This document shows, piece after piece, positions 5,668-20,301 of a DNA stretch of 64,000 bases. The translations under genes were made by a program, and so were the position numbers. The stretch comes from Escherichia coli (GTDB lineage: Bacteria > Pseudomonadota > Gammaproteobacteria > Enterobacterales > Enterobacteriaceae). How positions within the stretch are numbered: position 1 is the stretch's first letter; each line of letters opens with the position of its first letter. The stretch lies in assembly GCF_003018115.1 (NCBI RefSeq), contig NZ_CP027457.1. The stretch is one strand, 5' to 3'. The notes under the pieces were generated by a model. The model worked only from the letters and a program-made list of their open reading frames with translations. It was not told the origin of the DNA and made no database searches.

Positions 5668-6264
5668 TCAAACCTCTTCTCTTTTTAATTTTTCGTTTAT
5701 GAGATTATTTCTTTCCCATAATCCGGCAAAACGAGCAGCATTACTGGCGGTATAACGCACAGTATGGCGAATATTTCGATGCCCGAGATAATCCTGAATT
5801 AAACGAGTATCTGCACCACGCTCCGCCAGTTCATAACCGCAAGCATGCCTTAACATATGAGGATGAGTCTGCGTTACGGTTCCAGCTTCAATACCGGCAT
5901 CGCGAATAATGCGATAGGCCTGCTGGCGAGAAAGCCGACTCCCGCGGCGAGAAATAAATATGGCGTCGGTCCGGTCAGCGCCTTTCCAGTTAGCACGTTC
6001 CAGGGTCCAGCGTTCCACAGCTTCACGCTCATCAAAACGTAACGGGTGAACGGTAGAAAATCCGTTCTTCAGTCGGCGAATATTTATTCGACCTTCATTA
6101 AGGTCAAGATCCTGATAATGCAGATCAAGCAGTTCACTAATACGCATCCCATGCCGATATGCCAACAGAATAAGACAATAATCTCTGGCTCCCGTTGCCC
6201 CGTAACAAACCGCCTGCATCATGGCCTGAACTTCTTTACCGGTAAGATAACGACGTTTACTCAC
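5668..6264 (-). CDS. fimE: Tyrosine site-specific recombinase FimE (switch ON-to-OFF)
   Basis: 198-aa ORF starting MSKRRYLTGKEVQAMM with the conserved HxxR...Y recombinase C-terminus; adjacent to fimS. Confidence 0.93.
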   Translation of the reverse strand: MSKRRYLTGKEVQAMMQAVCYGATGARDYCLILLAYRHGMRISELLDLHYQDLDLNEGRINIRRLKNGFSTVHPLRFDEREAVERWTLERANWKGADRTDAIFISRRGSRLSRQQAYRIIRDAGIEAGTVTQTHPHMLRHACGYELAERGADTRLIQDYLGHRNIRHTVRYTASNAARFAGLWERNNLINEKLKREEV

Positions 6265-6741
6265 AATAGTAGTACTCCTGACTGAGATATATTTAAATGA
6301 ATACCTATAGGAAACCTCAATCGGTCAAAATTAGCCCAATAGATAAAAAGATAACCACACACGAAGTGATGTGGCTATCAGTCAATTACATTAAATATCA
6401 TACAAAAATAAAATATCACTGATGTGACAACATCTATTTTCATTGATTTGATTCAATATAACAATAGATTGCAGTAGATTAGCTTCCAGTTGCTTAAAAA
6501 ATAAAGAAAAAAGTGCGAAAACAGGAGAATTTAAGTGATGTGTAAATTTATGAATGATTTTGTTTATTTATTTTGAAGAACATAAACCATTGTATTTTGT
6601 ATGGATATGGTTAACTTAATGTTTATTATGATAATTAAGAATCATACTTACAATAACATCAATTAATAAATGCTTAATCATTTTTGATATATCGTAAGAA
6701 TAATGTTGTTTTTAACACCATCCCTGGTATCTCAACTATCT

Positions 6742-7344
6742 CTATAAAACAGCGTGACGCTGTCGTCCTCTGGCTCTATCCCAGATGCCGTAAAAACGCC
6801 CTGCATTGCTGGCGGTATACCAGACAGTATGACGAATATTGCGATGCCCAAGATAATCCTGGATAAGTCGCGTATCTATTCCCATATTCGCCAAAGCAAA
6901 ACCACACGAATGGCGTAACATGTGCGGATGAATCTCCAGTGACAACCCGGCATTACCACCGGAAGTCGAGATAATATGGTAAAATTGTTGCCGAGAAAGC
7001 GGATTCCCCTTACGCGATAAAAATACCCACTCGCTCTCAGCATGCGGATACGAAGTACGGATACTCAACCAGTTTTTTAAAGCCTGAACTTCTTTGTTCA
7101 ATAGCGGGTGCGTTGTTGAAAAGCCTTTTTTTAATCGATGGATATATATACACTTTGCCTTAAGATCAATATCCGAAATCCTCAATCGACAAATTTCACT
7201 CGCCCGGAAACCATGAATAAAACAAAGCAAAGTCAGACAATAATTACGTGCTGCATGAGGCCCGGTATTTGCTGCTTTAAGGAGTGATTCGATTTCACTA
7301 TGGGTCAGGAAGTTCCTTTTTTTGTTTTCAGCCTTATTCTTCAT
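6742..7344 (-). CDS. fimB: Tyrosine site-specific recombinase FimB
   Basis: Track ORF 6742..7374; start MKNKAENKKRNFLTHSEIE at 7344 gives 200 aa; paralogue of FimE. Confidence 0.92.
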   Translation of the reverse strand: MKNKAENKKRNFLTHSEIESLLKAANTGPHAARNYCLTLLCFIHGFRASEICRLRISDIDLKAKCIYIHRLKKGFSTTHPLLNKEVQALKNWLSIRTSYPHAESEWVFLSRKGNPLSRQQFYHIISTSGGNAGLSLEIHPHMLRHSCGFALANMGIDTRLIQDYLGHRNIRHTVWYTASNAGRFYGIWDRARGRQRHAVL

Positions 7345-8359
7345 CGTTTTTCCCTTATAATTACAGACGCGCACTAGCTGTGCTGGGTTAGCAATAATCC
7401 AACATTTTTATCCTGATTATGTTTATAAAAGCGAACGTTTGCTTAATAACTAACGTAAGTGGACCAGTTCTTCTGAGTGAACTTAAATGGAGTAGCAACA
7501 GTTAATTATAATAACGTTGCCATACAAACGCTATGCTCTTGCATGCTATGTACCTTTATATATTTATCAATCGGATACGAATCTAATAATAACCCTCATC
7601 ATTAATGCAACTAATCTTATCTATATATCATGTGATATGTTCTGTAACAAGTAAAATCAACATAAAAAATTCAGCAAAATTTAATATTCGTTCAACTAGC
7701 CGTCTCACATATGACATTATTAGTCAACTCCATTTGCCACAAAATGGCTATTTCATGGAACACAGTAATTTCTTAGTGGCTATTATCAAGCTAATTCTTA
7801 GGTCCCTAGCGATTATTCCTGGCTGGTTCGTCAGTTTAAGCCATGAGATTGTTACATTCCTTTTTATCCTGGAGATATGGGGGAACGCAGGAGACGATTT
7901 TTTCATCTACATTCGTTGGTAAATATGGCTTTGGTCACTGCGACTTAAACCTTCCTCAATCACAGCCATTCGCCGGGCGATACGGCAAACAAACTAAGTG
8001 AAACATCATCCTGAAAACACCAACATCAACAAGCCTCTCCAGATCGACTTCAGAAGTGACCAGTTACAAGCCACAAACCAGGAAACATATTTCATGATGA
8101 GAATTATGCTCAGCCTGATGGCGGGTAAACACTGATTTTCATCAAACTCACTGAGTTAGCTTGCAAAGCTTTCCTTGTTTAGACTCTAAATAAATTATTT
8201 ATAAAACAAATATTTAAACGAAGATCTTTAGTTTTTGAAGACCACCGCAAGTGTTCGTCTGGCTTCACATGGCATCTTCCTCTTAGAAAAAGATCGACAT
8301 ATTTTGTGACACGAATTGCAAATCTGGTTTTGTTGTATGGATTGCGTGATTTTTGATCT

Positions 8360-8378
8360 GGTATAACAGGTATAAAGG
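8360..8378. promoter_or_regulatory. Putative NanR operator (tandem GGTATA repeats: GGTATAACAGGTATAAAGG) in the fimB-nanC intergenic region
   Basis: Two GGTATA hexamers spaced as in NanR operators, read directly; location in the long AT-rich intergenic region known to carry NanR/NagC sites controlling fimB and nanC. Confidence 0.5.
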
Positions 8379-8788
8379 TGCACCAAGATAGTCAATGAGA
8401 CAGGGCATCTCGCAATCTCTGGCAAACATCACTTCAGTTCTTTCTCATCGGGTGATGAAAACGCACTTCAGTCTGAAAGGAATATGAAAATGAGATCAAC
8501 AGACACTCTATTTTATGACTCTGGGTAAAATGAATTGAGTAAGTGATATAGCTTACGAACATTCAAATCAATTAAACATCAGAAGAGATTTTATACTCAG
8601 GTATTTAATCTGGCTCTCTGTTTATTTAAATAATGTGGAAAGAGAATTTTCACAGGAGACCTTATACAAAAAATATAAAATAAGCTACCCGTTGCCAAAG
8701 ACACTATAAGCCTGGCAAAAAATATTACACAACATAAATGCTAATTGTTTATGCGGGCTTTGTTTTGCTTTCTGTATCCTACAAATGA

Positions 8789-9514
8789 GTGAAATTTATG
8801 AAAAAGGCTAAAATACTTTCTGGCGTATTATTACTGTGCTTTTCGTCACCATTAATTTCTCAGGCTGCGACACTGGACGTACGTGGTGGATATCGTAGCG
8901 GAAGCCATGCCTATGAGACTCGACTCAAAGTCAGTGAGGGATGGCAAAATGGATGGTGGGCAAGCATGGAAAGTAATACCTGGAATACCATTCATGATAA
9001 TAAAAAGGAAAATGCCGCACTCAATGATGTTCAGGTTGAAGTTAATTACGCGATTAAACTTGATGAGCAATGGACGGTGCGCCCGGGAATGTTAACGCAT
9101 TTTAGCAGCAACGGCACACGCTACGGACCCTACGTAAAACTGTCCTGGGACGCGACAAAAGATCTTAATTTTGGCATTCGCTATCGTTACGACTGGAAAG
9201 CTTACCGACAACAAGACTTATCCGGTGATATGTCTCGTGATAACGTTCATCGTTGGGATGGATATGTCACTTACCATATTAATAGTGATTTCACCTTCGC
9301 ATGGCAAACGACGCTATACAGCAAACAGAACGATTATCGCTATGCAAACCATAAGAAATGGGCGACGGAAAATGCATTTGTTCTACAATACCATATGACG
9401 CCCGATATTACGCCATACATAGAATATGACTACCTGGACCGTCAGGGTGTTTACAACGGCAGAGATAATTTATCGGAAAACAGTTATCGCATTGGTGTGT
9501 CATTTAAACTGTAG
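8789..9514 (+). CDS. nanC: N-acetylneuraminic acid outer membrane channel NanC (KdgM family)
   Basis: 241-aa ORF with signal peptide ...LLLCFSSPLISQAATLDVRGG and beta-barrel porin-like sequence ending in F-K-L. Confidence 0.9.
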   Translation: MKFMKKAKILSGVLLLCFSSPLISQAATLDVRGGYRSGSHAYETRLKVSEGWQNGWWASMESNTWNTIHDNKKENAALNDVQVEVNYAIKLDEQWTVRPGMLTHFSSNGTRYGPYVKLSWDATKDLNFGIRYRYDWKAYRQQDLSGDMSRDNVHRWDGYVTYHINSDFTFAWQTTLYSKQNDYRYANHKKWATENAFVLQYHMTPDITPYIEYDYLDRQGVYNGRDNLSENSYRIGVSFKL

Positions 9515-9533
9515 TAGACAGGAGACAGTCACA

Positions 9534-10640
9534 ATGAATAAAACAATAACGGCGCTTGCTATCATGATGGCTTCATTTGCCGCAAACGCGTCTGTATTAC
9601 CGGAAACTCCTGTGCCATTTAAAAGTGGTACCGGAGCAATTGATAACGACACTGTCTACATTGGTTTAGGTAGCGCAGGTACGGCATGGTACAAGCTGGA
9701 TACACAGGCCAAAGATAAAAAATGGACAGCGTTAGCTGCATTCCCTGGTGGAACAAGAGATCAAGCAACCTCGGCATTTATTGATGGCAATCTGTATGTG
9801 TTTGGCGGCATTGGCAAAAATAGCAAGGGCTTGACTCAGGTATTTAATGACGTACACAAATACAACCCCAAAACCAATAGTTGGGTTAAATTGATGTCGC
9901 ACGCACCGATGGGCATGGCAGGTCATGTGACTTTTGTACACAACGGCAAGGCTTATGTTACTGGCGGTGTTAACCAGAATATCTTCAATGGCTATTTTGA
10001 AGATCTCAACGAGGCTGGAAAAGATTCAACCGCTGTAGATAAAATCAACGCTCACTATTTTGACAAAAAAGCAGAAGATTATTTCTTCAATAAGTTTCTG
10101 TTGTCTTTTGATCCCTCAACACAGCAATGGAGTTACGCTGGCGAATCTCCCTGGTACGGAACGGCTGGTGCGGCGGTTGTGAATAAAGGTGATAAAACCT
10201 GGCTTATTAATGGTGAAGCCAAACCAGGATTGCGAACGGATGCCGTATTTGAACTTGATTTCACCGGTAATAATTTAAAATGGAATAAGCTTGCTCCCGT
10301 CTCATCACCAGATGGCGTCGCTGGCGGTTTTGCGGGGATAAGCAATGATTCTCTTATATTTGCCGGAGGGGCCGGATTCAAAGGTTCACGAGAAAATTAC
10401 CAAAACGGTAAGAACTATGCGCATGAAGGCCTGAAAAAATCATATAGCACTGATATTCATCTTTGGCATAACGGGAAATGGGATAAATCGGGTGAATTAT
10501 CGCAAGGTCGGGCCTACGGAGTATCATTGCCCTGGAATAATAGTCTATTGATTATTGGCGGTGAAACTGCAGGCGGCAAAGCGGTGACGGATTCAGTTTT
10601 GATCTCTGTGAAGGATAATAAAGTTACAGTACAAAACTAA
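9534..10640 (+). CDS. nanM: N-acetylneuraminate mutarotase NanM (Kelch-repeat protein)
   Basis: Internal start MNKTITALAIMMASFAANA at 9534 with RBS GGAGA upstream; 368 aa, repeated GG/W Kelch-like motifs. Confidence 0.88.
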   Translation: MNKTITALAIMMASFAANASVLPETPVPFKSGTGAIDNDTVYIGLGSAGTAWYKLDTQAKDKKWTALAAFPGGTRDQATSAFIDGNLYVFGGIGKNSKGLTQVFNDVHKYNPKTNSWVKLMSHAPMGMAGHVTFVHNGKAYVTGGVNQNIFNGYFEDLNEAGKDSTAVDKINAHYFDKKAEDYFFNKFLLSFDPSTQQWSYAGESPWYGTAGAAVVNKGDKTWLINGEAKPGLRTDAVFELDFTGNNLKWNKLAPVSSPDGVAGGFAGISNDSLIFAGGAGFKGSRENYQNGKNYAHEGLKKSYSTDIHLWHNGKWDKSGELSQGRAYGVSLPWNNSLLIIGGETAGGKAVTDSVLISVKDNKVTVQN

Positions 10641-10704
10641 CGCTTCAGGGCCCCAGTAAAGGGGCCCTGCTATCAATTTGTCATTTCAATTACGCGAAAT
10701 TTAT

Positions 10705-11685
10705 ATGAACGCAATAATATCGCCTGATTATTACTATGTTCTTACCGTTGCTGGTCAGTCTAATGCCATGGCGTATGGCGAAGGACTGCCATTACCGGAC
10801 AGGGAAGATGCGCCTCATCCAAGAATTAAACAATTAGCGAGATTTGCGCATACGCATCCCGGAGGCCCGTCATGTCACTTTAACGACATTATTCCACTGA
10901 CTCACTGCCCACACGATGTTCAGGATATGCAGAGTTATCACCATCCTCTGGCAACGAATCATCAAACACAGTACGGCACCGTTGGCCAGGCACTGCATAT
11001 TGCACGGAAATTACTGCCCTTTATTCCTGATAACGCAGGGGTTCTCATCGTTCCATGTTGCCGTGGCGGATCGGCTTTTACCGCGGGCAGCGAGGGGACA
11101 TATTCAGAACGGCACGGAGCCAGCCATGATGCTTGTCGTTGGGGAACGGATACTCCGCTGTACCAGGATTTAGTCAGCAGAACGCGAGCCGCACTGGCAA
11201 AAAATCCGCAGAACAAATTCCTCGGCGTATGCTGGATGCAAGGCGAATTTGACTTAATGACCAGTGACTACGCGTCACACCCTCAACACTTTAATCATAT
11301 GGTTGAAGCCTTTCGTAGGGATCTAAAACAATACCATTCTCAGCTGAATAATATTACTGACGCGCCGTGGTTTTGCGGCGATACCACCTGGTACTGGAAA
11401 GAAAATTTCCCTCATGCGTATGAAGCTATTTATGGCAATTATCAAAATAATGTTTTAGCCAATATTATTTTCGTCGACTTCCAGCAACAAGGTGAAAGAG
11501 GACTGACGAACGCGCCTGATGAAGATCCGGACGATTTAAGCACGGGATATTACGGTTCAGCGTACCGGTCACCGGAGAACTGGACGACGGCACTGCGAAG
11601 CAGTCATTTCAGCGCGGCAGCCCGTCGGGGGATTATTTCTGACAAGTTTGTAGAAGCAATTTTGCAGTTTTGGCGCGAAAGGTGA
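10705..11685 (+). CDS. nanS: 9-O-acetyl-N-acetylneuraminate esterase NanS (SGNH hydrolase)
   Basis: Start MNAIISPDYYYVLTVAGQSNAMAYG, 326 aa; GQSN block typical of SGNH esterases. Confidence 0.88.
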   Translation: MNAIISPDYYYVLTVAGQSNAMAYGEGLPLPDREDAPHPRIKQLARFAHTHPGGPSCHFNDIIPLTHCPHDVQDMQSYHHPLATNHQTQYGTVGQALHIARKLLPFIPDNAGVLIVPCCRGGSAFTAGSEGTYSERHGASHDACRWGTDTPLYQDLVSRTRAALAKNPQNKFLGVCWMQGEFDLMTSDYASHPQHFNHMVEAFRRDLKQYHSQLNNITDAPWFCGDTTWYWKENFPHAYEAIYGNYQNNVLANIIFVDFQQQGERGLTNAPDEDPDDLSTGYYGSAYRSPENWTTALRSSHFSAAARRGIISDKFVEAILQFWRER

Positions 11686-11839
11686 GCGTTCATTAATTTG
11701 ATTTATTCGCATCCATCAGCGCTTTTAACTCCTCCGGCGTAAACGGTGGTTTGCGTCGGTGCAACATCGCATGGCAATTAGGGCACACAGGCAGCAAAAA
11801 AACAAATGAGATCAAAGTAATATATCTTCACTTGCAGGC

Positions 11840-12769
11840 TTGAACAGCAGAAAATTTGCGAGCATGATCGCAATTATTTCACTGCCAGGGATATCAATGG
11901 CTTCCAGTAAATCGCTACAGCAGGCAATTGCCAACATAAAAATCTGGCACAAGGGTGAACAGCGCGCGCCGCATAAGCCATTGTTATTGCTATACGTATT
12001 AGCGGGATACCTGAATGGACATCCACGCCTTTTCGATTATGGCTCGGAAATCTACGAACCTCTGCACAGTTTACTGGAACGTTTTGGGCCACAGCGTTCA
12101 CAGTACCGACCTGATATGCCGTTCTGGCGATTACAAGGCGACGGATTCTGGCAATTACACAATGCCGAGCTTTGCTCAACAGCAGGGAGCAGCCGACAAC
12201 CGCCAGTGAAGGAACTGAACGAATACCACGTTGCAGGCGGTTTCGATGAACAGCACTACGCCCTGGTAACCGGCAATAAAAAACTCATTAATACTCTGGC
12301 ACAACAGATACTCGAAGCGCACTTCACCGAGAGTATTCAGGAAGAAATCGCTGACGAGTTGGGTTTTGACCTCCAGCAAATCCGTAAGCAACGCGACCCG
12401 TTATTTCGCAGACTTGTATTACGCGCCTATAACTACCAGTGCGCGATATGTGGCTTTAATATGCGCCACGATGACACTACCGTCGCGCTGGAAGCGGCAC
12501 ATATAAAATGGAAACAGCACGGCGGTCTTTGTGAAATTCCTAATGGCCTGGCGCTTTGCGCAATTCACCATAAAGCCTTTGATAAAGGATCGATTGGCCT
12601 GGACGAAAATATGCGGGTACTGGTATCAGATGCGGTAAACGGCGGAGGGATCGTTGAGAGATTATTCTGGGATTTTGACGGGAAAACTATTGCGTTACCA
12701 CAGGTGCGTAAAAATTACCCTTTTGAGGGGTTTGTAGAGTGGCATCGGAAAGAGGTTTTTAGGGGGTGA
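11840..12769 (+). CDS. HNH-motif endonuclease with an uncharacterised N-terminal domain (possible modification-dependent restriction-type nuclease)
   Basis: 309-aa ORF; C-terminal YQCAICGF...AAHIKW...LCAIHHKAFDKG is a Cys/His HNH-type motif. An alternative start MASSKSLQQ at 11897 has an AGGGA RBS. Family assignment of the N-terminal domain is not possible by eye. Confidence 0.7.
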   Translation: MNSRKFASMIAIISLPGISMASSKSLQQAIANIKIWHKGEQRAPHKPLLLLYVLAGYLNGHPRLFDYGSEIYEPLHSLLERFGPQRSQYRPDMPFWRLQGDGFWQLHNAELCSTAGSSRQPPVKELNEYHVAGGFDEQHYALVTGNKKLINTLAQQILEAHFTESIQEEIADELGFDLQQIRKQRDPLFRRLVLRAYNYQCAICGFNMRHDDTTVALEAAHIKWKQHGGLCEIPNGLALCAIHHKAFDKGSIGLDENMRVLVSDAVNGGGIVERLFWDFDGKTIALPQVRKNYPFEGFVEWHRKEVFRG

Positions 12770-12810
12770 GATTGATAACTATCGCAGTATGTTCAATATT
12801 GCTGACATAA

Positions 12811-12993
12811 TCAGTGCAGGATCTTGCCGCTAGTTTACAACTCGCCTTCGATAGCGGCGCAAAACGAGTTCTGTTGCCGATATCCTCGGCTATGGATATT
12901 CCAACAGTTCCGGCAGAGTTGTTTACCAAGTTTCAGGTAAGTTTTTTCTCAGAACCGGTTGATGCGGTTTATAAGGCGCTGGATGTGAATTAA
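12811..12993 (+). pseudogene. Remnant encoding the C-terminal ~60 aa of a Lon-like protease domain (BrxL/Lon-type)
   Basis: Frame opens just after a TAA at 12808-12810 and reads ...SGAKRVLLPISSAMDIPTVPAELFTKFQVSFFSEPVDAVYKALDVN*, which resembles the extreme C-terminus of Lon proteases (...GIKTVLIP...IP...V...EVL..AL). No upstream body of the gene is present. Confidence 0.5.
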
Positions 12994-13326
12994 CACATTC
13001 CTCAGCTTATTTACAAAAGGATTATTCCCATTTGATATAATATCAGTGCCAATTTACTTTTTTCAATGAAATATATCTCGGCTAAATAACAATAAAACTT
13101 ATCGCTAATGGATTAAATAAACAATTTTCTAATTCATTTCACCACCTTTGATATAGAAATTGATGGTGTTGTCGTTGCCATTGCTTATGGTGATGATAAA
13201 ATCCACGTTTCTGGATCGTTGCGTAGAAAATCATCACTGCCTTGATATTTTGATGCGATATAATCATACCGTTCCGTAGTACCAATTTCAATTTCAGGCT
13301 AAACCCCAACATTAAAAAAAATTAGA

Positions 13327-13375
13327 GTTATTCACTGATTATATTATATTATCAATAATATAATCAGTGAATAAC
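13327..13375 (-). terminator. Perfect 21-bp inverted repeat (7-nt loop) downstream of the 682-aa ORF, followed on the minus strand by a T8 run; probable intrinsic terminator
   Basis: GTTATTCACTGATTATATTAT / ATAATATAATCAGTGAATAAC arms read directly; T-run lies about 6 nt past the stem on the minus strand. Confidence 0.55.
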
Positions 13376-13397
13376 ATGGACTATATAATAAATTGCT

Positions 13398-15446
13398 CTA
13401 ATCATTTCCCTTACGAATATATGGGCCAAAAGCCCAAGAATCATAATAAGGGTGATGGACTAATTTTTCATTAAATCGAACACTATAAGTTAATTTTTTT
13501 ATATTTTTACGTACAGCATTAATACTGGGCAAAGAGGAAAGATAATCTATAAACTTATCGATAGTGATTTCCCCTTCGCAACACTCAAACCCATCAATGA
13601 TATTTTTCGCCATTTTTCCATTTTCATTTGTTTGATATATCACTCCAGGTATTCGTTGAAAAAAACTAGATAATGCATATTTGTCCGCTACATATGTATC
13701 ATCCACATGATATTTCCCACCGAGCATAGTTGTAGTAACAATAAGCTTATACACACCTTTGGGTTGCCATGTTGATGGTAGTTCGAATTCTTTAATGATC
13801 ACATCAAGATGATTAAGATAATGTTCAGAAATTCGATTTATTTGTTGAAAATAAGAACGCATAAATTTATTATTATGATCATGTATTAATGAGCTATCTC
13901 CAACGATGTTACACACTTGCTGATAGTACTTACCATAATATATTGGTTGACCATTTGATTTTAGTTCTGTAAAAATCAAAAAATCATCCAGGAGAATCAC
14001 GCAATCGCACTGATAATTAGCATGAGCATCAATTGAAGAAGCTTTAATCCCCGCATCACGAACTTGTTTTATAAATTGTTGCTCATGAAATCGCCCTTTA
14101 CTTGCTTGAGAAATTTTTTTGGAACCAAATAATGACATTAGAGAGCGAGTCACTGAGCTATTTGCTATTAATGCAGGCATTAAGCATAAACCGTCCATAC
14201 AGGGAATAAATGGGCAATCATTAAGATCATGTGATTTTGAATTGAAGGTAAAATAATCTATCAGTTTTTTTGCTGCATCCGCTGCAATCCCCTTACGTTG
14301 AAAGAATGATAACCAACTCTCACGGCTTTTTATGATCAGCCAGCGATCCAACTGTAGGGGTATAGGTTTTGTCGATGAAAATCTTTTGCTCATTTCTTCT
14401 TTAGATAACTCGACTAAACATTGATAAGCGTGCACCCAATTAAATAATGATATATTCCCATATTCTTCATGAAGGTCATCAGGAGACATATTTTCCAACT
14501 CGCTTAGATGAAATGAGCTAAAAACGCCATCAGAATTTAAGTAAGATGGCATATGATCCTTTACCCAACTATTTAGATGAAAATGTTTGTTACTAAATTC
14601 ATGAACTTCGCTATATAGATGTGACGCTCTCATCATTAGTCTATTTCTTGCAATCTCATAATCTCGGTATAAACAAAAACTATCAACCTCAAGAGAGTAA
14701 ATGTTATTATCCAATTTTGTAAATACTGCACTACTTAGTCTGAAAAAGTCTCTTACTCTGCTTAATGAGTCAAAAACATTCCACTCATTAAGGTACCCTC
14801 CCATTGAAAGCAAGGTTTGTTTATTCACACAAGAAGTTAGTTTCAATGGCCCATGAGTCCGTAAATAAGAAAATATTCTTCCGGTGTAATTGGCTACCTC
14901 ATCAAATGCCCTATCGATAACTCGAAAATATTCGATATCAGGTTCAGCATGAATATTAATATTTTCAGAAACGATAAATAATGGAAAAATCCTCTTCATT
15001 TTTTTAGGATCATTGACCACAACCAAGGATGATAATGATGATAAAAACATCTCACAAAACATGATGAGATTAAGTATTAATGCATGTGATTTTTTTGTAT
15101 TTTTACGCCAAATACCAGCACATTTTGTAGCCGCAAAGAAAGAATTATTTATATCATGCATAATTTTACATTGACTCTCGAACTCAGAGATTAGTTCAAT
15201 GTTATCAGGAAATGAGTTTACTAGCTCATTAATACATTTTTTGAATGTATTGTTATACTCAACTTCAGTCTGAACTGAAAATCTATTATAATAGATGGAA
15301 GATATTCTCAGCACATCCAAGGCGATATCTATACTAATATCATCTCTTTTTATGTACTCACAAAAAAAAGAACAAAACTGTTTCGGGTCGTTAGCAAGAT
15401 TACTAATTCTAGTAGTATCATAAACTTTTTCCATTTTTCCATACAT
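13398..15446 (-). CDS. Orphan AT-rich 682-aa protein of unknown function; candidate defence or nuclease protein with a possible PD-(D/E)XK-like motif
   Basis: Uninterrupted 2 kb ORF with RBS AGGA before the ATG; composition visibly far more AT-rich than flanking core genes; no Walker A, HNH or other motif I recognise except E~455 ... D~481 ... E494-L-K496 (QCDCVILLDDFLIFTELK). Confidence 0.75.
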   Translation of the reverse strand: MYGKMEKVYDTTRISNLANDPKQFCSFFCEYIKRDDISIDIALDVLRISSIYYNRFSVQTEVEYNNTFKKCINELVNSFPDNIELISEFESQCKIMHDINNSFFAATKCAGIWRKNTKKSHALILNLIMFCEMFLSSLSSLVVVNDPKKMKRIFPLFIVSENINIHAEPDIEYFRVIDRAFDEVANYTGRIFSYLRTHGPLKLTSCVNKQTLLSMGGYLNEWNVFDSLSRVRDFFRLSSAVFTKLDNNIYSLEVDSFCLYRDYEIARNRLMMRASHLYSEVHEFSNKHFHLNSWVKDHMPSYLNSDGVFSSFHLSELENMSPDDLHEEYGNISLFNWVHAYQCLVELSKEEMSKRFSSTKPIPLQLDRWLIIKSRESWLSFFQRKGIAADAAKKLIDYFTFNSKSHDLNDCPFIPCMDGLCLMPALIANSSVTRSLMSLFGSKKISQASKGRFHEQQFIKQVRDAGIKASSIDAHANYQCDCVILLDDFLIFTELKSNGQPIYYGKYYQQVCNIVGDSSLIHDHNNKFMRSYFQQINRISEHYLNHLDVIIKEFELPSTWQPKGVYKLIVTTTMLGGKYHVDDTYVADKYALSSFFQRIPGVIYQTNENGKMAKNIIDGFECCEGEITIDKFIDYLSSLPSINAVRKNIKKLTYSVRFNEKLVHHPYYDSWAFGPYIRKGND

Positions 15447-16123
15447 CCTATTGTCTAAATTACTATAAAACTAGCCACTTAACTAATAATTATAAATTTC
15501 ATCTTTTACACCTTGCATTTTTATAACCAATGAAATCTACAACAAGCAACTGATGGATAATCCGATATTGGTCGCATTTAATGGCATGGTAGCAAAGTTT
15601 TCATCACATACCTCCTTTGCACCAGAATAAACGCCAGAGACCTGAAATTGCGAGTACACTACAGAAATTGTACTGCCGGTCCCATCAGCATAAAACCATA
15701 GTTACACAGGTAATCATCATTATTCGCCAAGATAATAAATATTATTCGGTAGAATAGCGTTCTCAGGTGGTCAGTAAAATTGTCTTCAACAAGATGTCTG
15801 CGCATCTCGTCTGCTAGCCCTACATAACTGCTCTCGACCGAAACTATTTATTGAATGTTCACCAAGGTGGGCGTGGAGACAAAATGACGTCTTTTGATAT
15901 TAGCTACCTGAGCCACATGGTCAAAACGTTCAAGTAGCATAGCGAAACCACCCTGCCCACGTAATGTGGACGATGCAGCTTCCAGCCAGAGCAAACTTGG
16001 GACCATCGACTACAAAATGAAGAATACTGAACTGCTTTTCTGGCAGGCCTATATACTGCACGGATATGGGTGATTTCAGGCACAAAAAAAGCCGCCCTTA
16101 AGCGACTCGATTTGCATACGGTG

Positions 16124-16208
16124 TGGTGCCGAAGGCCGGACTCGAACCGGCACGTATTTCTACGGTTGATTTTGAATCAACTGCGTCTACCGATTTCGCC
16201 ACTTCGGC
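16124..16208 (-). tRNA. leuX: tRNA-Leu (leuX-type, CAA anticodon), 85 nt ending CCA
   Basis: Reverse complement reads GCCGAAGTGGCGAAATCGGTAGACGCAGTTGATTCAAAATCAACCGTAGAAATACGTGCCGGTTCGAGTCCGGCCTTCGGCACCA; type II tRNA with long variable arm. Confidence 0.9.
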
Positions 16209-16403
16209 ACTGAAGAGGTATGCGGAAAACGTTGTGGATTATACCTGTCGCACGCCACCATGCAAGCGCCAGCTTGCTCGCACCTCGCTAAGTGCTGAAA
16301 TTTTCAGCATTGCATACAGCGATGTGTAACCTTTGTCACACTCCAGGCACCCCGCCCTGCCATGCTCTACACTTCCCAGACAACACCAGAGAAGGACCAA
16401 AAA

Positions 16404-17423
16404 ATGTCGATGATAAAAAGCTATGCCGCAAAAGAAGCAGGCGGCGAACTGGAAGTTTATGAGTACGATCCCGGTGAACTGAAGCCACAAGATGTTGAAG
16501 TGCAGGTGGATTACTGCGGGATCTGCCATTCCGATCTGTCGATGATCGATAACGAATGGGGATTTTCACAATATCCGCTGGTTGCCGGGCATGAGGTGAT
16601 TGGTCGCGTGGTGGCGCTCGGGAGCGCCGCGCAGGATAAAGGTTTGCAGGTCGGTCAGCGTGTCGGGATTGGCTGGACGGCGCGTAGCTGCGGGCATTGC
16701 GATGCCTGTATTAGCGGTAATCAGATCAACTGTGAGCAAGGTGCGGTGCCGACGATTATGAATCGCGGCGGCTTTGCCGAGAAGTTGCGTGCGGACTGGC
16801 AATGGGTGATCCCACTGCCAGAAAATATTGATATCGAGTCCGCCGGGCCGCTGTTGTGCGGTGGTATCACGGTCTTCAAACCACTGTTAATGCACCATAT
16901 CACTGCCACCAGCCGCGTTGGGGTAATTGGTATTGGCGGGCTGGGGCATATCGCTATAAAACTTCTGCACGCAATGGGATGCGAGGTGACAGCCTTTAGT
17001 TCTAATCCGGCGAAAGAGCAGGAAGTACTGGCGATGGGTGCCGATAAAGTGGTGAATAGCCGCGATCCGCAGGCACTGAAAGCACTGGCGGGGCAGTTTG
17101 ATCTCATTATCAACACCGTCAACGTCAGCCTCGACTGGCAGCCTTATTTTGAAGCGCTGACGTACGGCGGTAATTTCCATACGGTCGGTGCAGTTCTCAC
17201 GCCGCTGTCTGTTCCGGCCTTTACGTTAATTGCGGGCGACCGCAGCATCTCTGGTTCTGCTACCGGCACGCCTTATGAGCTGCGAAAGCTGATGCGCTTT
17301 GCCGCCCGTAGCAAGGTTGCGCCGACCACCGAACTGTTCCCGATGTCGAAAATTAACGACGCCATCAAGCATGTGCGCGACGGTAAGGCGCGTTACCGCG
17401 TGGTTCTGAAAGCTGACTTCTGA
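16404..17423 (+). CDS. ahr: NADPH-dependent aldehyde reductase Ahr (YjgB), zinc-type alcohol dehydrogenase
   Basis: Start [21 protein letters not shown] at 16404; GHEVIG and CGICHSD zinc-ADH motifs; 339 aa. Confidence 0.9.
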
Positions 17424-17552
17424 TCTCTTTGCCGGGTGCCTGTCGCCCGGCACTTAAATCTCTTTGGAAGGCGTCTCGCAATCTGCTGAATTTAGCGGTG
17501 AAGAGTGCGCAGCCGTTGCCTATACTCCAGGCAGGAAACTGGAGGAAATCTC

Positions 17553-19055
17553 ATGAGCGAACCCCTGTTAATTGCCCGTACGCCGGACACAGAACTTTTT
17601 TTACTGCCGGGAATGGCTAACCGTCACGGGCTGATTACTGGCGCAACGGGGACGGGTAAAACCGTTACGCTGCAAAAACTGGCAGAGTCATTGTCGGAAA
17701 TCGGCGTGCCGGTGTTTATGGCTGATGTGAAAGGCGATCTGACCGGTATCGCGCAGGCAGGAACGGCGTCGGAAAAACTGCTCGCAAGGCTTAAAAATAT
17801 CGGCGTCAATGACTGGCAACCGCATGCTAATCCGGTGGTGGTGTGGGATATCTTTGGCGAGAAAGGCCATCCGGTGCGGGCGACGGTTTCAGACCTGGGG
17901 CCGCTGTTGCTGGCGCGGCTGTTGAATCTCAACGATGTGCAATCTGGCGTGCTGAATATCATCTTCCGTATTGCTGACGATCAGGGATTGTTGCTGCTCG
18001 ACTTTAAAGATCTGCGGGCAATTACCCAGTACATCGGCGATAACGCCAAATCCTTCCAGAATCAGTACGGTAATATCAGTAGCGCATCGGTTGGTGCCAT
18101 CCAGCGCGGGCTGTTGTCGCTGGAACAGCAAGGCGCAGCACACTTCTTTGGTGAGCCGATGCTGGATATCAAAGACTGGACGCGCACCGATGCCAACGGT
18201 AAAGGCGTTATCAATATCCTCAGCGCCGAGAAGCTTTATCAGATGCCGAAACTGTATGCCGCCAGCCTGTTGTGGATGCTCTCGGAGTTGTATGAACAAT
18301 TGCCGGAAGCGGGCGATCTGGAGAAACCAAAACTGGTGTTTTTCTTCGACGAAGCACATCTGCTGTTTAACGATGCACCGCAGGTACTGCTGGATAAGAT
18401 TGAGCAGGTGATAAGGCTTATTCGCTCAAAAGGCGTGGGCGTCTGGTTCGTTTCGCAAAACCCGTCTGATATTCCGGATAATGTGCTCGGCCAGCTCGGT
18501 AATCGCGTTCAGCACGCTTTACGGGCTTTTACGCCAAAAGATCAGAAAGCAGTGAAGGCAGCGGCGCAAACCATGCGGGCCAATCCGGCATTTGATACCG
18601 AAAAGGCAATCCAGGAACTGGGGACCGGCGAGGCGTTAATCTCGTTTCTCGATGCAAAAGGAAGTCCTTCTGTGGTGGAACGGGCGATGGTGATTGCGCC
18701 TTGTTCGCGGATGGGACCGGTGACGGAAGATGAGCGTAATGGCTTGATTAATCACTCTCCGGTGTATGGCAAGTACGAGGATGACGTGGACCGGGAATCC
18801 GCCTATGAGATGTTGCAAAAAGGCGTACAGGCAAGCACCGAGCAGCAAAATAATCCTGCCGTGAAAAGGAAAGAGGTAGCGGTAGATGACGGCATTCTTG
18901 GTGGATTGAAGGATATTTTGTTTGGCACTACCGGACCACGCGGCGGGAAGAAAGATGGTGTTGTGCAAACAATGGCGAAAAGCGCCGCCCGCCAGGTGAC
19001 GAATCAGATTGTGCGTGGAATGTTGGGGAGTTTGCTGGGGGGGAGAAAAAGGTAA
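17553..19055 (+). CDS. yjgR: Putative ATPase YjgR (DUF853, P-loop)
   Basis: Start [20 protein letters not shown] at 17553; Walker A GATGTGKT; 500 aa. Confidence 0.85.
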
Positions 19056-19075
19056 GCCAGGTGCGATTTGTCTTT

Positions 19076-19113
19076 GCCTGATGCGACGCTGGCGCGTCTT
19101 ATCATGCCTACAC
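19076..19113. repeat. REP-like palindromic element
   Basis: GCCTGATGCGACGCTGGCGCGTCTTATCATGCCTACA resembles E. coli REP consensus. Confidence 0.5.
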
Positions 19114-19215
19114 CACTGCAATACATTGGATTTTCATGATTTTTCAGGCATGAACGAAGCACACTTTGCTAATAATAATAAAGGGAGCTTTCGCTCCCTT
19201 TATGCGTTCATCAGG

Positions 19216-20301
19216 TTACGATTTTCTCATTAACAGCCACAGGCTGATTAAGAAGAAGCTGGCGCTTGGCAACAGTGCGCCAATGATCGGCGGGATGCCA
19301 TAAACCAACGTCAGCGGGCCGAAGATCTGGTCCAGTACGTAGAAGACAAAACCGAAGCTGATACCGGTGACCACACGCACGCCCATCGGTACGCTACGCA
19401 GTGGGCCAAAGATGAACGACAGCGCCATCAGCATCATCACCGCCACGGATAGCGGCTGGAAGATTTTGCTCCACATGTTGAGCTGATAACGTCCGGCATC
19501 CTGACCGCTCGACTTCAGATACTTCACGTAGTTGTGCAAACCGCTGATTGAGAGTGCATCCGGGTCCAGCGCCACCACGCCCAGTTTGTCTGGCGTGAGG
19601 TTGGTTTTCCAGGTGCCGCTCACCGTCTGCGAACCGGTGATCTGTTTCGGATTGGTCAGATCAGATTCATCAACCTGCGACAGACGCCAGACTTTATGTT
19701 CCGGGTCAAACTTCGCGGTAGCGGCATAGCGTACGGATTGCAGACGACGATTCTCGTTAAAGGCATAAATACTGATGCCACCTAACTCTTCGTCACCTTT
19801 AACCCGCTCAATGTAGACGAAGTTGTTGCCATCTTTCGCCCATAAACCTTGCTGGGTAGAGAGCAACGAGCCGCCGTACATCGCCTGCGCACGGTAGTTA
19901 CGCGCCATCTGCTCGCCCTGCGGCGCGACCCATTCACCAATCGCCATCGTCAGTAAGACCAGCGGAATGGCGGTTTTCATCACCGACAGCGCAACCTGCA
20001 TACGGGTGAAACCAGAAGCCTGCATCACCACCAGTTCGCTGCGCTGCGCCAGCATCCCAAGACCAAGCAACGCCCCAAGCAGAGCCGCCATCGGGAAGAA
20101 GATCTGCACATCTTTCGGCACGCTCAGCAAGGTATACATTCCTGCGCCTAACGCGTCGTAACTCCCCTGCCCGGCTTTTTTCAGCTGATCGACAAATTTG
20201 ATAATGCCCGACAGCGACACCAGCATGAACAGCGTCATCATGATGGTGGTGAAAATAGTTTTACCGATATAGCGGTCAAGTACGCCAAAAGGTTGCATCA
20301 C
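19216..20301 (-). CDS. lptG: LPS export ABC transporter permease LptG
   Basis: 360/361-aa membrane protein starting M(M)QPFGVLDRYIGKT; 4-bp overlap with lptF. Confidence 0.92.
   Translation of the reverse strand: MMQPFGVLDRYIGKTIFTTIMMTLFMLVSLSGIIKFVDQLKKAGQGSYDALGAGMYTLLSVPKDVQIFFPMAALLGALLGLGMLAQRSELVVMQASGFTRMQVALSVMKTAIPLVLLTMAIGEWVAPQGEQMARNYRAQAMYGGSLLSTQQGLWAKDGNNFVYIERVKGDEELGGISIYAFNENRRLQSVRYAATAKFDPEHKVWRLSQVDESDLTNPKQITGSQTVSGTWKTNLTPDKLGVVALDPDALSISGLHNYVKYLKSSGQDAGRYQLNMWSKIFQPLSVAVMMLMALSFIFGPLRSVPMGVRVVTGISFGFVFYVLDQIFGPLTLVYGIPPIIGALLPSASFFLISLWLLMRKS

Follow-up and report, generated by a model that had tools for sequence, protein, structure and literature searches.

Introduction

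EcoWI, a phosphorothioate (PT)-dependent restriction endonuclease of Escherichia coli, requires Mg2+, is a dimer in solution and becomes promiscuous in Mn2+ (PMC7461809). Its site is GpsAAC/GpsTTC, which is cleaved at N7/N6 to leave a 1-nt 3′ overhang; hemi- and fully modified sites are both cleaved, and two sites work better (PMC7461809). In vivo, EcoWI drops the transformation of a dnd+ plasmid to essentially zero, and both cleavage stimulated by Rp-phosphorothioate and in vivo restriction of dnd+ DNA are on record for this enzyme and four more homologues (PMC7461809). The EcoWI authors place the subfamily as Type IIM / IIS-like and not Type IV, because cleavage occurs at a fixed distance (PMC7461809 / PMC9521924), and the enzyme is in use for genome-wide PT mapping (PMC9521924). 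Here we describe a gene at 11897-12769 (+ strand) of a 64-kb stretch of E. coli contig NZ_CP027457.1, hereafter the window. Its product is very probably a restriction endonuclease of the same kind, modification-dependent and acting on its own, in which a sulfur-binding domain (SBD) is followed by an HNH nuclease domain, and the gene is very probably an allele or paralogue of the one for EcoWI.

The way in which an SBD holds PT-DNA is described for ScoMcrA, where the sulfur pocket consists of H116, R117, Y164, P165 and A168, with R117 and P165 being essential (PMC6224610). Most homologues have lysine in place of R117, the Y164M substitution in ScoMcrA gives stronger PT-DNA binding, and the SRGRR loop has a base-reading role (PMC6224610). 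A conserved SBD motif, KPzzLL...PF..L..W, is given in the EcoWI literature (PMC7461809 / PMC9521924). For the gene described here, a RefSeq protein name, a curated family model, SBD crystal structures, and the biochemistry and in vivo restriction of a same-species homologue are thus known already. An earlier note on the window had called the gene an HNH nuclease with an uncharacterised N-terminal domain.

Results

Family assignment of the gene product

The NCBIfam model NF045808, "phosphorothioated DNA-binding restriction endonuclease", gave the product a score of 430.7 bits, the curated cut-off being 180. The match ran end to end, pairing residues 25-308 of the 309-residue open reading frame (ORF) with profile positions 2-284 of 284. 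The same name is carried in PGAP/RefSeq by WP_032301168.1, whose sequence is identical to the product, and by its E. coli alleles. A local Pfam scan gave HNH_2 (PF13391) on ORF residues 201-255 (E = 1.8e-9) as the sole named family, and the precomputed Pfam annotation of all close homologues has PF26340 in the N-terminal region, which we take to be the ScoMcrA-like SBD family. In PADLOC, generic 'HNH' models and one mREase_IV model matched, none of them specific to the SBD-HNH family. Two further matches were not retained: a 'Takusan' Pfam match (E = 0.11) was set aside as noise, and a match to the RNA-guided endonuclease IscB (NF040563) stayed at 22.6 bits, where the cut-off is 175, and covered the HNH segment alone.

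The closest characterised counterpart is the protein WP_000199891.1 of E. coli W, which has 291 residues, bears the same PT-endonuclease name and is encoded beside the leuX island integrase. Its identity to the window protein is 76% over the full length, being 74% in the SBD, 60% in the linker and 81% in the HNH domain. WP_000199891.1 is almost certainly EcoWI, to judge by the strain from which it comes and by its mass, the calculated value being 33,410 Da and the reported one 33.4 kDa (PMC7461809).

Reading frame and start codon

The coding region was divided as follows.

11840 to 11896, + strand: upstream in-frame extension from TTG, 19 codons, with no homologue or profile coverage
11897 to 12769, + strand: coding sequence (CDS) of the predicted SBD-HNH PT-dependent restriction endonuclease, 290 residues plus stop, sequence equal to RefSeq WP_032301168.1

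The ORF at 11840-12769 (+) is uninterrupted, gives 309 residues when counted from TTG 11840, and contains all the peptides quoted in the earlier note, which had taken the gene over this whole length. The frame is real and intact, and it is the start that changes, as ATG 11897 is most likely the true start (290 residues) in place of TTG 11840. This Met is residue 1 and nearly invariant in an alignment of 80 diverse full-length homologues (35-76% identity to the window protein), which also served as the family profile and for all conservation counts below. Because the RefSeq start of the identical protein, the beginning of the NF045808 match at ORF residue 25 and this near-invariant Met all favor ATG 11897, the segment 11840-11896 is probably a 5′ untranslated leader with the ribosome-binding site. 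In accordance with that, WP_000199891.1 begins at the equivalent Met, and a Shine-Dalgarno-like AGGGA is located at 11886-11890, 7 nt 5′ of the ATG. A promoter and terminator scan found a weak 6-bp hairpin at 11856-11873, inside the leader. Residues are numbered from ATG 11897 unless ORF residues are specified.

The N-terminal sulfur-binding domain

The N-terminal part of the protein contains the following elements.

11897 to 12376, + strand: SBD, approximately residues 1-160, a helical winged-helix-like DNA-binding fold (phmmer, family profile and Foldseek)
11972 to 11980, + strand: H26-K27-P28, equivalent of ScoMcrA H116-R117, predicted sulfur-cavity wall and phosphorothioate salt bridge (alignment to ScoMcrA)
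12116 to 12130, + strand: M74-P75-F76-W77-R78, equivalent of ScoMcrA Y164-P165-F-W-A168, predicted cavity lid and floor (alignment)
12170 to 12208, + strand: loop LCSTAGSSRQPPV, residues 92-104, aligned with S187-RGRR-191 of ScoMcrA, its base-reading loop

The earlier note had allotted about 200 residues to an N-terminal domain that it could not name. We found a domain of approximately 160 residues, and it is far from uncharacterised, being a ScoMcrA-type SBD for which crystal structures with PT-DNA exist. By phmmer, this part matched the ScoMcrA SBD structures 5ZMO, 5ZMN and 5ZMM (E = 5e-8 to 6e-8) and aligned more weakly to the SprMcrA SBD (7CC9). When the family profile was compared with the PDB, the matches were to ScoMcrA (5zmm, E = 2.5e-24), the SprMcrA SBD (E = 2e-15) and SBDHga (E = 3e-9). 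The AlphaFold2 model built from the 80-sequence alignment had a mean predicted local distance difference test score (pLDDT) of 95.6 and a predicted template modelling (TM) score of 0.91. In Foldseek, the PDB entries that ranked first for this model were all SBD-PT-DNA complexes with target-normalised TM scores of 0.71-0.78, the 0.78 being obtained for 5zmo_A with a root-mean-square deviation of 3.1 A over 157 columns. Sequence searches, Pfam and Foldseek gave no sign of an SRA, PUA-like or NEco domain in the window protein. The homology check that the earlier note had proposed for this domain, with SRA and PUA-like folds among the candidates, therefore ended at the SBD, and no match to a non-defence function came up.

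The residues expected to form the sulfur pocket are strongly conserved. K27 and P75 were present in 80/80 homologues and H26 in 77/80, whereas position 74 varied, with Y in 48/80; the M of the window protein is shared with the E. coli W protein and occurs in 6/80. The window protein also carries the KPzzLL...PF..L..W motif. The loop LCSTAGSSRQPPV was the least confident block of the SBD in the AlphaFold model (pLDDT 84).

Of the DNA modifications that the earlier note had listed, phosphorothioate is retained on the basis of NF045808, the SBD fold and EcoWI, and methyl- and hydroxymethyl-cytosine are dropped. Its type IV reading holds in so far as a modification-reading domain is joined to an HNH nuclease; the label itself gives way to Type IIM / IIS-like, which the EcoWI authors prefer. 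For annotation, the value of the analysis lies in the start codon at ATG 11897 and in the naming of the N-terminal domain as a sulfur-binding domain.

The HNH nuclease domain

The C-terminal part contains the nuclease, with its active-site residues assigned by conservation and homology.

12428 to 12766, + strand: HNH (beta-beta-alpha-metal) domain of the HNH_2 / TagI / VcaM4I type, residues 178-290 (Pfam, profile and Foldseek)
12440 to 12451, + strand: Cys ligands C182 and C185
12500 to 12502, + strand: catalytic H202
12542 to 12544, + strand: catalytic N216
12557 to 12559, + strand: Cys ligand C221
12566 to 12571, + strand: catalytic H224-H225

Among the homologues, C182, H202, N216 and H224 were present in 80/80, C185 and C221 in 79/80 and H225 in 77/80, and D229 was at least 96% conserved. 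Conservation of these Cys, His and Asn residues in at least 96% of the homologues, and of several in all of them, shows that the HNH motif has not degenerated. The Cys/His pattern that the earlier note had recognised is thus confirmed, both by the HNH_2 match and by the homologue alignment with which it had suggested looking for degeneration. The family profile matched the HNH domains of TagI (6ghs, E = 1.5e-10) and VcaM4I (6yex, E = 1.5e-5), and in Foldseek the matches ranking after the SBDs were the HNH enzymes VcaM4I, TagI and EcoKMcrA.

Proposed mechanism

By analogy with the characterised relatives, the SBD would dock on double-stranded DNA and accommodate the Rp sulfur of the PT linkage in a small hydrophobic pocket formed by H26/K27/M74/P75, where K27 would make a salt bridge to the phosphorothioate. 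Sequence context is probably determined by the neighbouring loop (residues 92-104), which may read a few flanking bases. Both strands would then be cut a few bp away by the HNH domain, probably in a homodimer that uses a divalent metal. The predicted targets are incoming phage, plasmid or island DNA that has been PT-modified by the Dnd-type system of the donor, and the host would need no cognate methylase because its own DNA is without the PT mark.

Distribution and conservation

Searches of 90%-identity clusters gave 4,403 matches at E <= 1e-5, the close ones spanning Escherichia, Shigella, Citrobacter, Enterobacter, Klebsiella and Salmonella. At 50% identity, 6,269 cluster representatives matched at E <= 1e-3, of which 474 reached E <= 1e-30; among the matches listed, most were 280-320 residues long with an end-to-end match. 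The two-domain architecture is kept, at about 290-310 residues, in hundreds of these clusters.

Within the species, some match was found in 4,961 of the 5,426 complete E. coli genomes, and 1,914/5,426, about a third, covered at least 80% of the gene, the others being fragments. From these counts the gene is a common accessory gene that is often lost. The allele itself is 96-100% conserved across many unrelated isolates. An example of a fragment is the unannotated remnant of ~250 bp in K-12 MG1655 (NC_000913.3 4536268-4536514), which is located between the yjhR pseudogene and ythB/nanS and is 89.9% identical to 11917-12164 of the window; the same remnant in strain CAR is annotated by PGAP as a frameshifted pseudogene.

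Genomic surroundings

The neighbouring features are given below.

10705 to 11685, + strand: nanS, 326 residues, 98% identical to K-12 NanS
11693 to 11815, - strand: HNH endonuclease fragment, the last 40 codons of the 216-residue WP_086218009.1
12814 to 12993, + strand: BrxL C-terminal tail, a BREX relic of 59 codons (TIGR02653 positions 617-675 of 675, E = 7e-24; PADLOC BrxL, E = 1e-18)
13328 to 13374, - strand: AT-rich perfect hairpin of 20 pairs, TTATTCACTGATTATATTAT...ATAATATAATCAGTGAATAA, then a T-rich tail, just downstream of the stop of the 682-residue ORF
13398 to 15446, - strand: ORF of 682 residues between the window gene and leuX, GC content 32.7% and 25.8% at third codon positions (GC3)
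16124 to 16208, - strand: tRNA-Leu(CAA) gene leuX

The gene order is fim, nanCMS, the window gene, leuX, ahr, yjgR and lptFG, which places the gene in a short variable nanS-leuX segment; the leuX neighbourhood is a classic site of island integration. Over 6001-20000, the window aligns without gaps to E. coli O169:H41 strain 2014EL-1345-2 at 99.95% identity. Adjacency to nanS, reported in the earlier note, is correct, as the gene begins 211 bp downstream of nanS. In the near-identical O169:H41 strain and others, PGAP calls nanS an incomplete 'sialate O-acetylesterase' pseudogene with its C-terminus missing; this looks like an annotation artefact and not a real truncation.

The host-like composition that had been noticed for the gene and the deviating one of its orphan neighbour were both borne out by the numbers: the CDS has a GC content of 48.8% and a GC3 of 49.8%, close to the 49.2% of the whole window, in contrast to the low values of the 682-residue ORF. 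That ORF gave no significant NCBIfam, Pfam or PADLOC match, the best being PDC-M29B (E = 0.002, 50 residues), and is 'hypothetical' in RefSeq. It is kept beside the PT enzyme in the O169:H41 and A16 strains and may be an uncharacterised defence gene, with the hairpin at 13328-13374 probably serving as its terminator.

Two of the neighbours are remnants. In strain A16 and several others, the 216-residue HNH gene is intact and divergent from the gene for the PT-dependent enzyme. The product, WP_086218009.1, ends in a McrA-type HNH, and its residues 24-87 matched the ScoMcrA 'head' (5zmm residues 29-93, E = 1e-4). In sequence, the head-HNH and SBD-HNH genes of strains that keep both intact resemble a split ScoMcrA, and a weaker idea is that the two might work together as such a pair. 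Compared with A16, 571 bp are deleted from the window, the two sides of the junction overlapping by 12 bp (11787-11798), and 110 bp of native sequence is left upstream of the start codon of the window gene. On the other side, the BrxL tail, labelled by PGAP as a partial hypothetical protein, points to a BREX system formerly present at the nanS-leuX site. The window gene also marks the nanS-leuX junction as a graveyard and hotspot of defence genes in E. coli.

A multi-gene system formed with the neighbours was considered and rejected, as the 682-residue ORF is without a family and the neighbours in E. coli W are quite different. Because the neighbours also vary between strains, the enzyme is treated as an autonomous single-gene system.

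Discussion

Evidence weighed against the assignment

Several points speak against a PT-dependent enzyme of the EcoWI kind, or limit how far that assignment reaches. The PT dependence, dimerisation, metal use, cleavage offset and GpsAAC/GpsTTC preference of the window enzyme rest on relatives, from which we infer them by analogy. WP_000199891.1 is equated with EcoWI on strain name and mass, and no EcoWI sequence or accession was found in the published EcoWI papers. The consensus scan upstream of the gene found no sigma-70-like promoter on the + strand, and the 571-bp deletion ends approximately 110 bp upstream, so that expression in the source strain is uncertain. Decay of the gene in many E. 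coli lineages suggests that selection for it is intermittent. Finally, SBD identity to the E. coli W protein is no more than 74%, and the loop aligned with the base-reading loop of ScoMcrA contains a one-residue indel; the sequence specificity could therefore differ.

The same specificity as EcoWI is likely but not certain, because the loop has substitutions besides the indel and the lowest pLDDT of the SBD, 84. We consider it unlikely that the window allele reads another PT context, such as GpsATC, GpsGCC or the Ssp-type CpsCA. If true, this would be of modest importance, although it is the only novelty that remains for the window gene.

A further alternative, which we regard as quite improbable, is that the gene, though intact in sequence, is not expressed or no longer functional, and is thus carried along and decaying in the variable leuX-nanS region instead of working in defence. 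Both the HNH fragment (11693-11815) and the BrxL tail (12814-12993) that flank it are remnants, whereas its own frame is full length and without a frameshift. A consensus promoter was not found, but 110 bp of native upstream sequence survives the deletion. Although at least 80% of the gene is kept in no more than 1,914 of the 4,961 E. coli genomes that match it at all, and K-12-type genomes have the frameshifted remnant of ~250 bp, all the pocket and catalytic residues are retained here, and the allele is 96-100% conserved in many unrelated isolates.

The similarity of the HNH domain, which is closest to those of the SRA-HNH enzymes TagI and VcaM4I, could suggest a reader of modified cytosine (5-methylcytosine, 5-hydroxymethylcytosine or glucosyl-5-hydroxymethylcytosine) like these two and EcoKMcrA. 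However, the similarity to all three is limited to the nuclease domain, while the N-terminal domain matches SBDs only, by sequence and by fold, and is no SRA, PUA or NEco domain. A weak PADLOC match, whose model bears the label 'Type IV methyl-directed restriction enzyme', appears to favor such a reader; it covers positions 94-233 of the 560-position profile, and because this range equals that of the SBD in ScoMcrA (95-233), the SBD is its most likely source. Those SBD-HNH enzymes that have been tested, EcoWI and others, are PT-dependent (PMC7461809), and cytosine recognition is accordingly very hard to sustain. Least credible of all is a housekeeping or regulatory PT-binding nuclease that acts in the repair or turnover of the host's own PT-DNA, for which it can be said that <3.6% of predicted SBD-HNH genes adjoin dnd clusters (PMC7461809), but against which stand the finding of no dnd- or ssp-like gene among the ORFs of the 64-kb window, otherwise a carrier of core E. 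coli genes, the position of the gene in a hotspot of defence remnants beside leuX, and the in vivo restriction of dnd+ plasmids by EcoWI (PMC7461809). A PT-dependent SBD-HNH restriction endonuclease is thus the reading that we prefer with confidence.

Comparison with known systems

The SRA-HNH enzymes TagI and VcaM4I (6GHS and 6YEX) share with the window protein a homologous HNH_2-type nuclease (Foldseek probability 1.00). Their specificity domain is an SRA-like fold reading modified cytosine, whereas the window protein has an SBD in its place, and the sequence matches to 6ghs and 6yex begin at query or profile positions of at least 144, that is, in the linker and nuclease half.

ScoMcrA of Streptomyces coelicolor (5ZMM, 5ZMN and 5ZMO) has a homologous SBD, in which H116/R117/P165 correspond to H26/K27/P75, within a head-SBD-SRA-HNH architecture. 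The window protein is without the head and SRA domains and is shorter (290 versus 561 residues); its match covered only residues 95-233 of 5zmm, the SBD, and Pfam gave no SRA match. Within the pocket, M replaces Y164 and R replaces A168.

SprMcrA of Streptomyces pristinaespiralis (SBD structures 7CC9, 7CCD and 7CCJ) has the same SBD-HNH architecture, and its SBD fold superposes with target-normalised TM scores of 0.71-0.77, although the SBD identity to the window protein is only ~20%. SprMcrA is Mn2+-dependent, with an H-N-R triad and a variable cut distance (PMC7461809), in contrast to the canonical H...N...H of the window protein.

EcoWI is the nearest of the described enzymes, coming from the same species with the same SBD-HNH architecture and nearly the same length (291 residues versus 290 for the window protein). 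The pocket residues (H-K-P and M-P-F-W-R) and the HNH residues are identical, and both genes are located in the variable region adjoining tRNA-Leu leuX. Nevertheless, the window gene is a different allele with 71% DNA identity, it adjoins nanS, whereas the EcoWI gene lies at the other end of the leuX region, beside the island integrase, and its neighbouring genes are different. The putative base-reading loop also differs, being STAGSSRQPPVKE in the window protein, with one additional residue and substitutions, and STSGS-RQPPRRE in the E. coli W protein. The EcoWI authors wanted other PT specificities as reagents (PMC7461809). As a natural variant of EcoWI, the window allele is a candidate PT-mapping reagent, possibly with an altered specificity or lower star activity.

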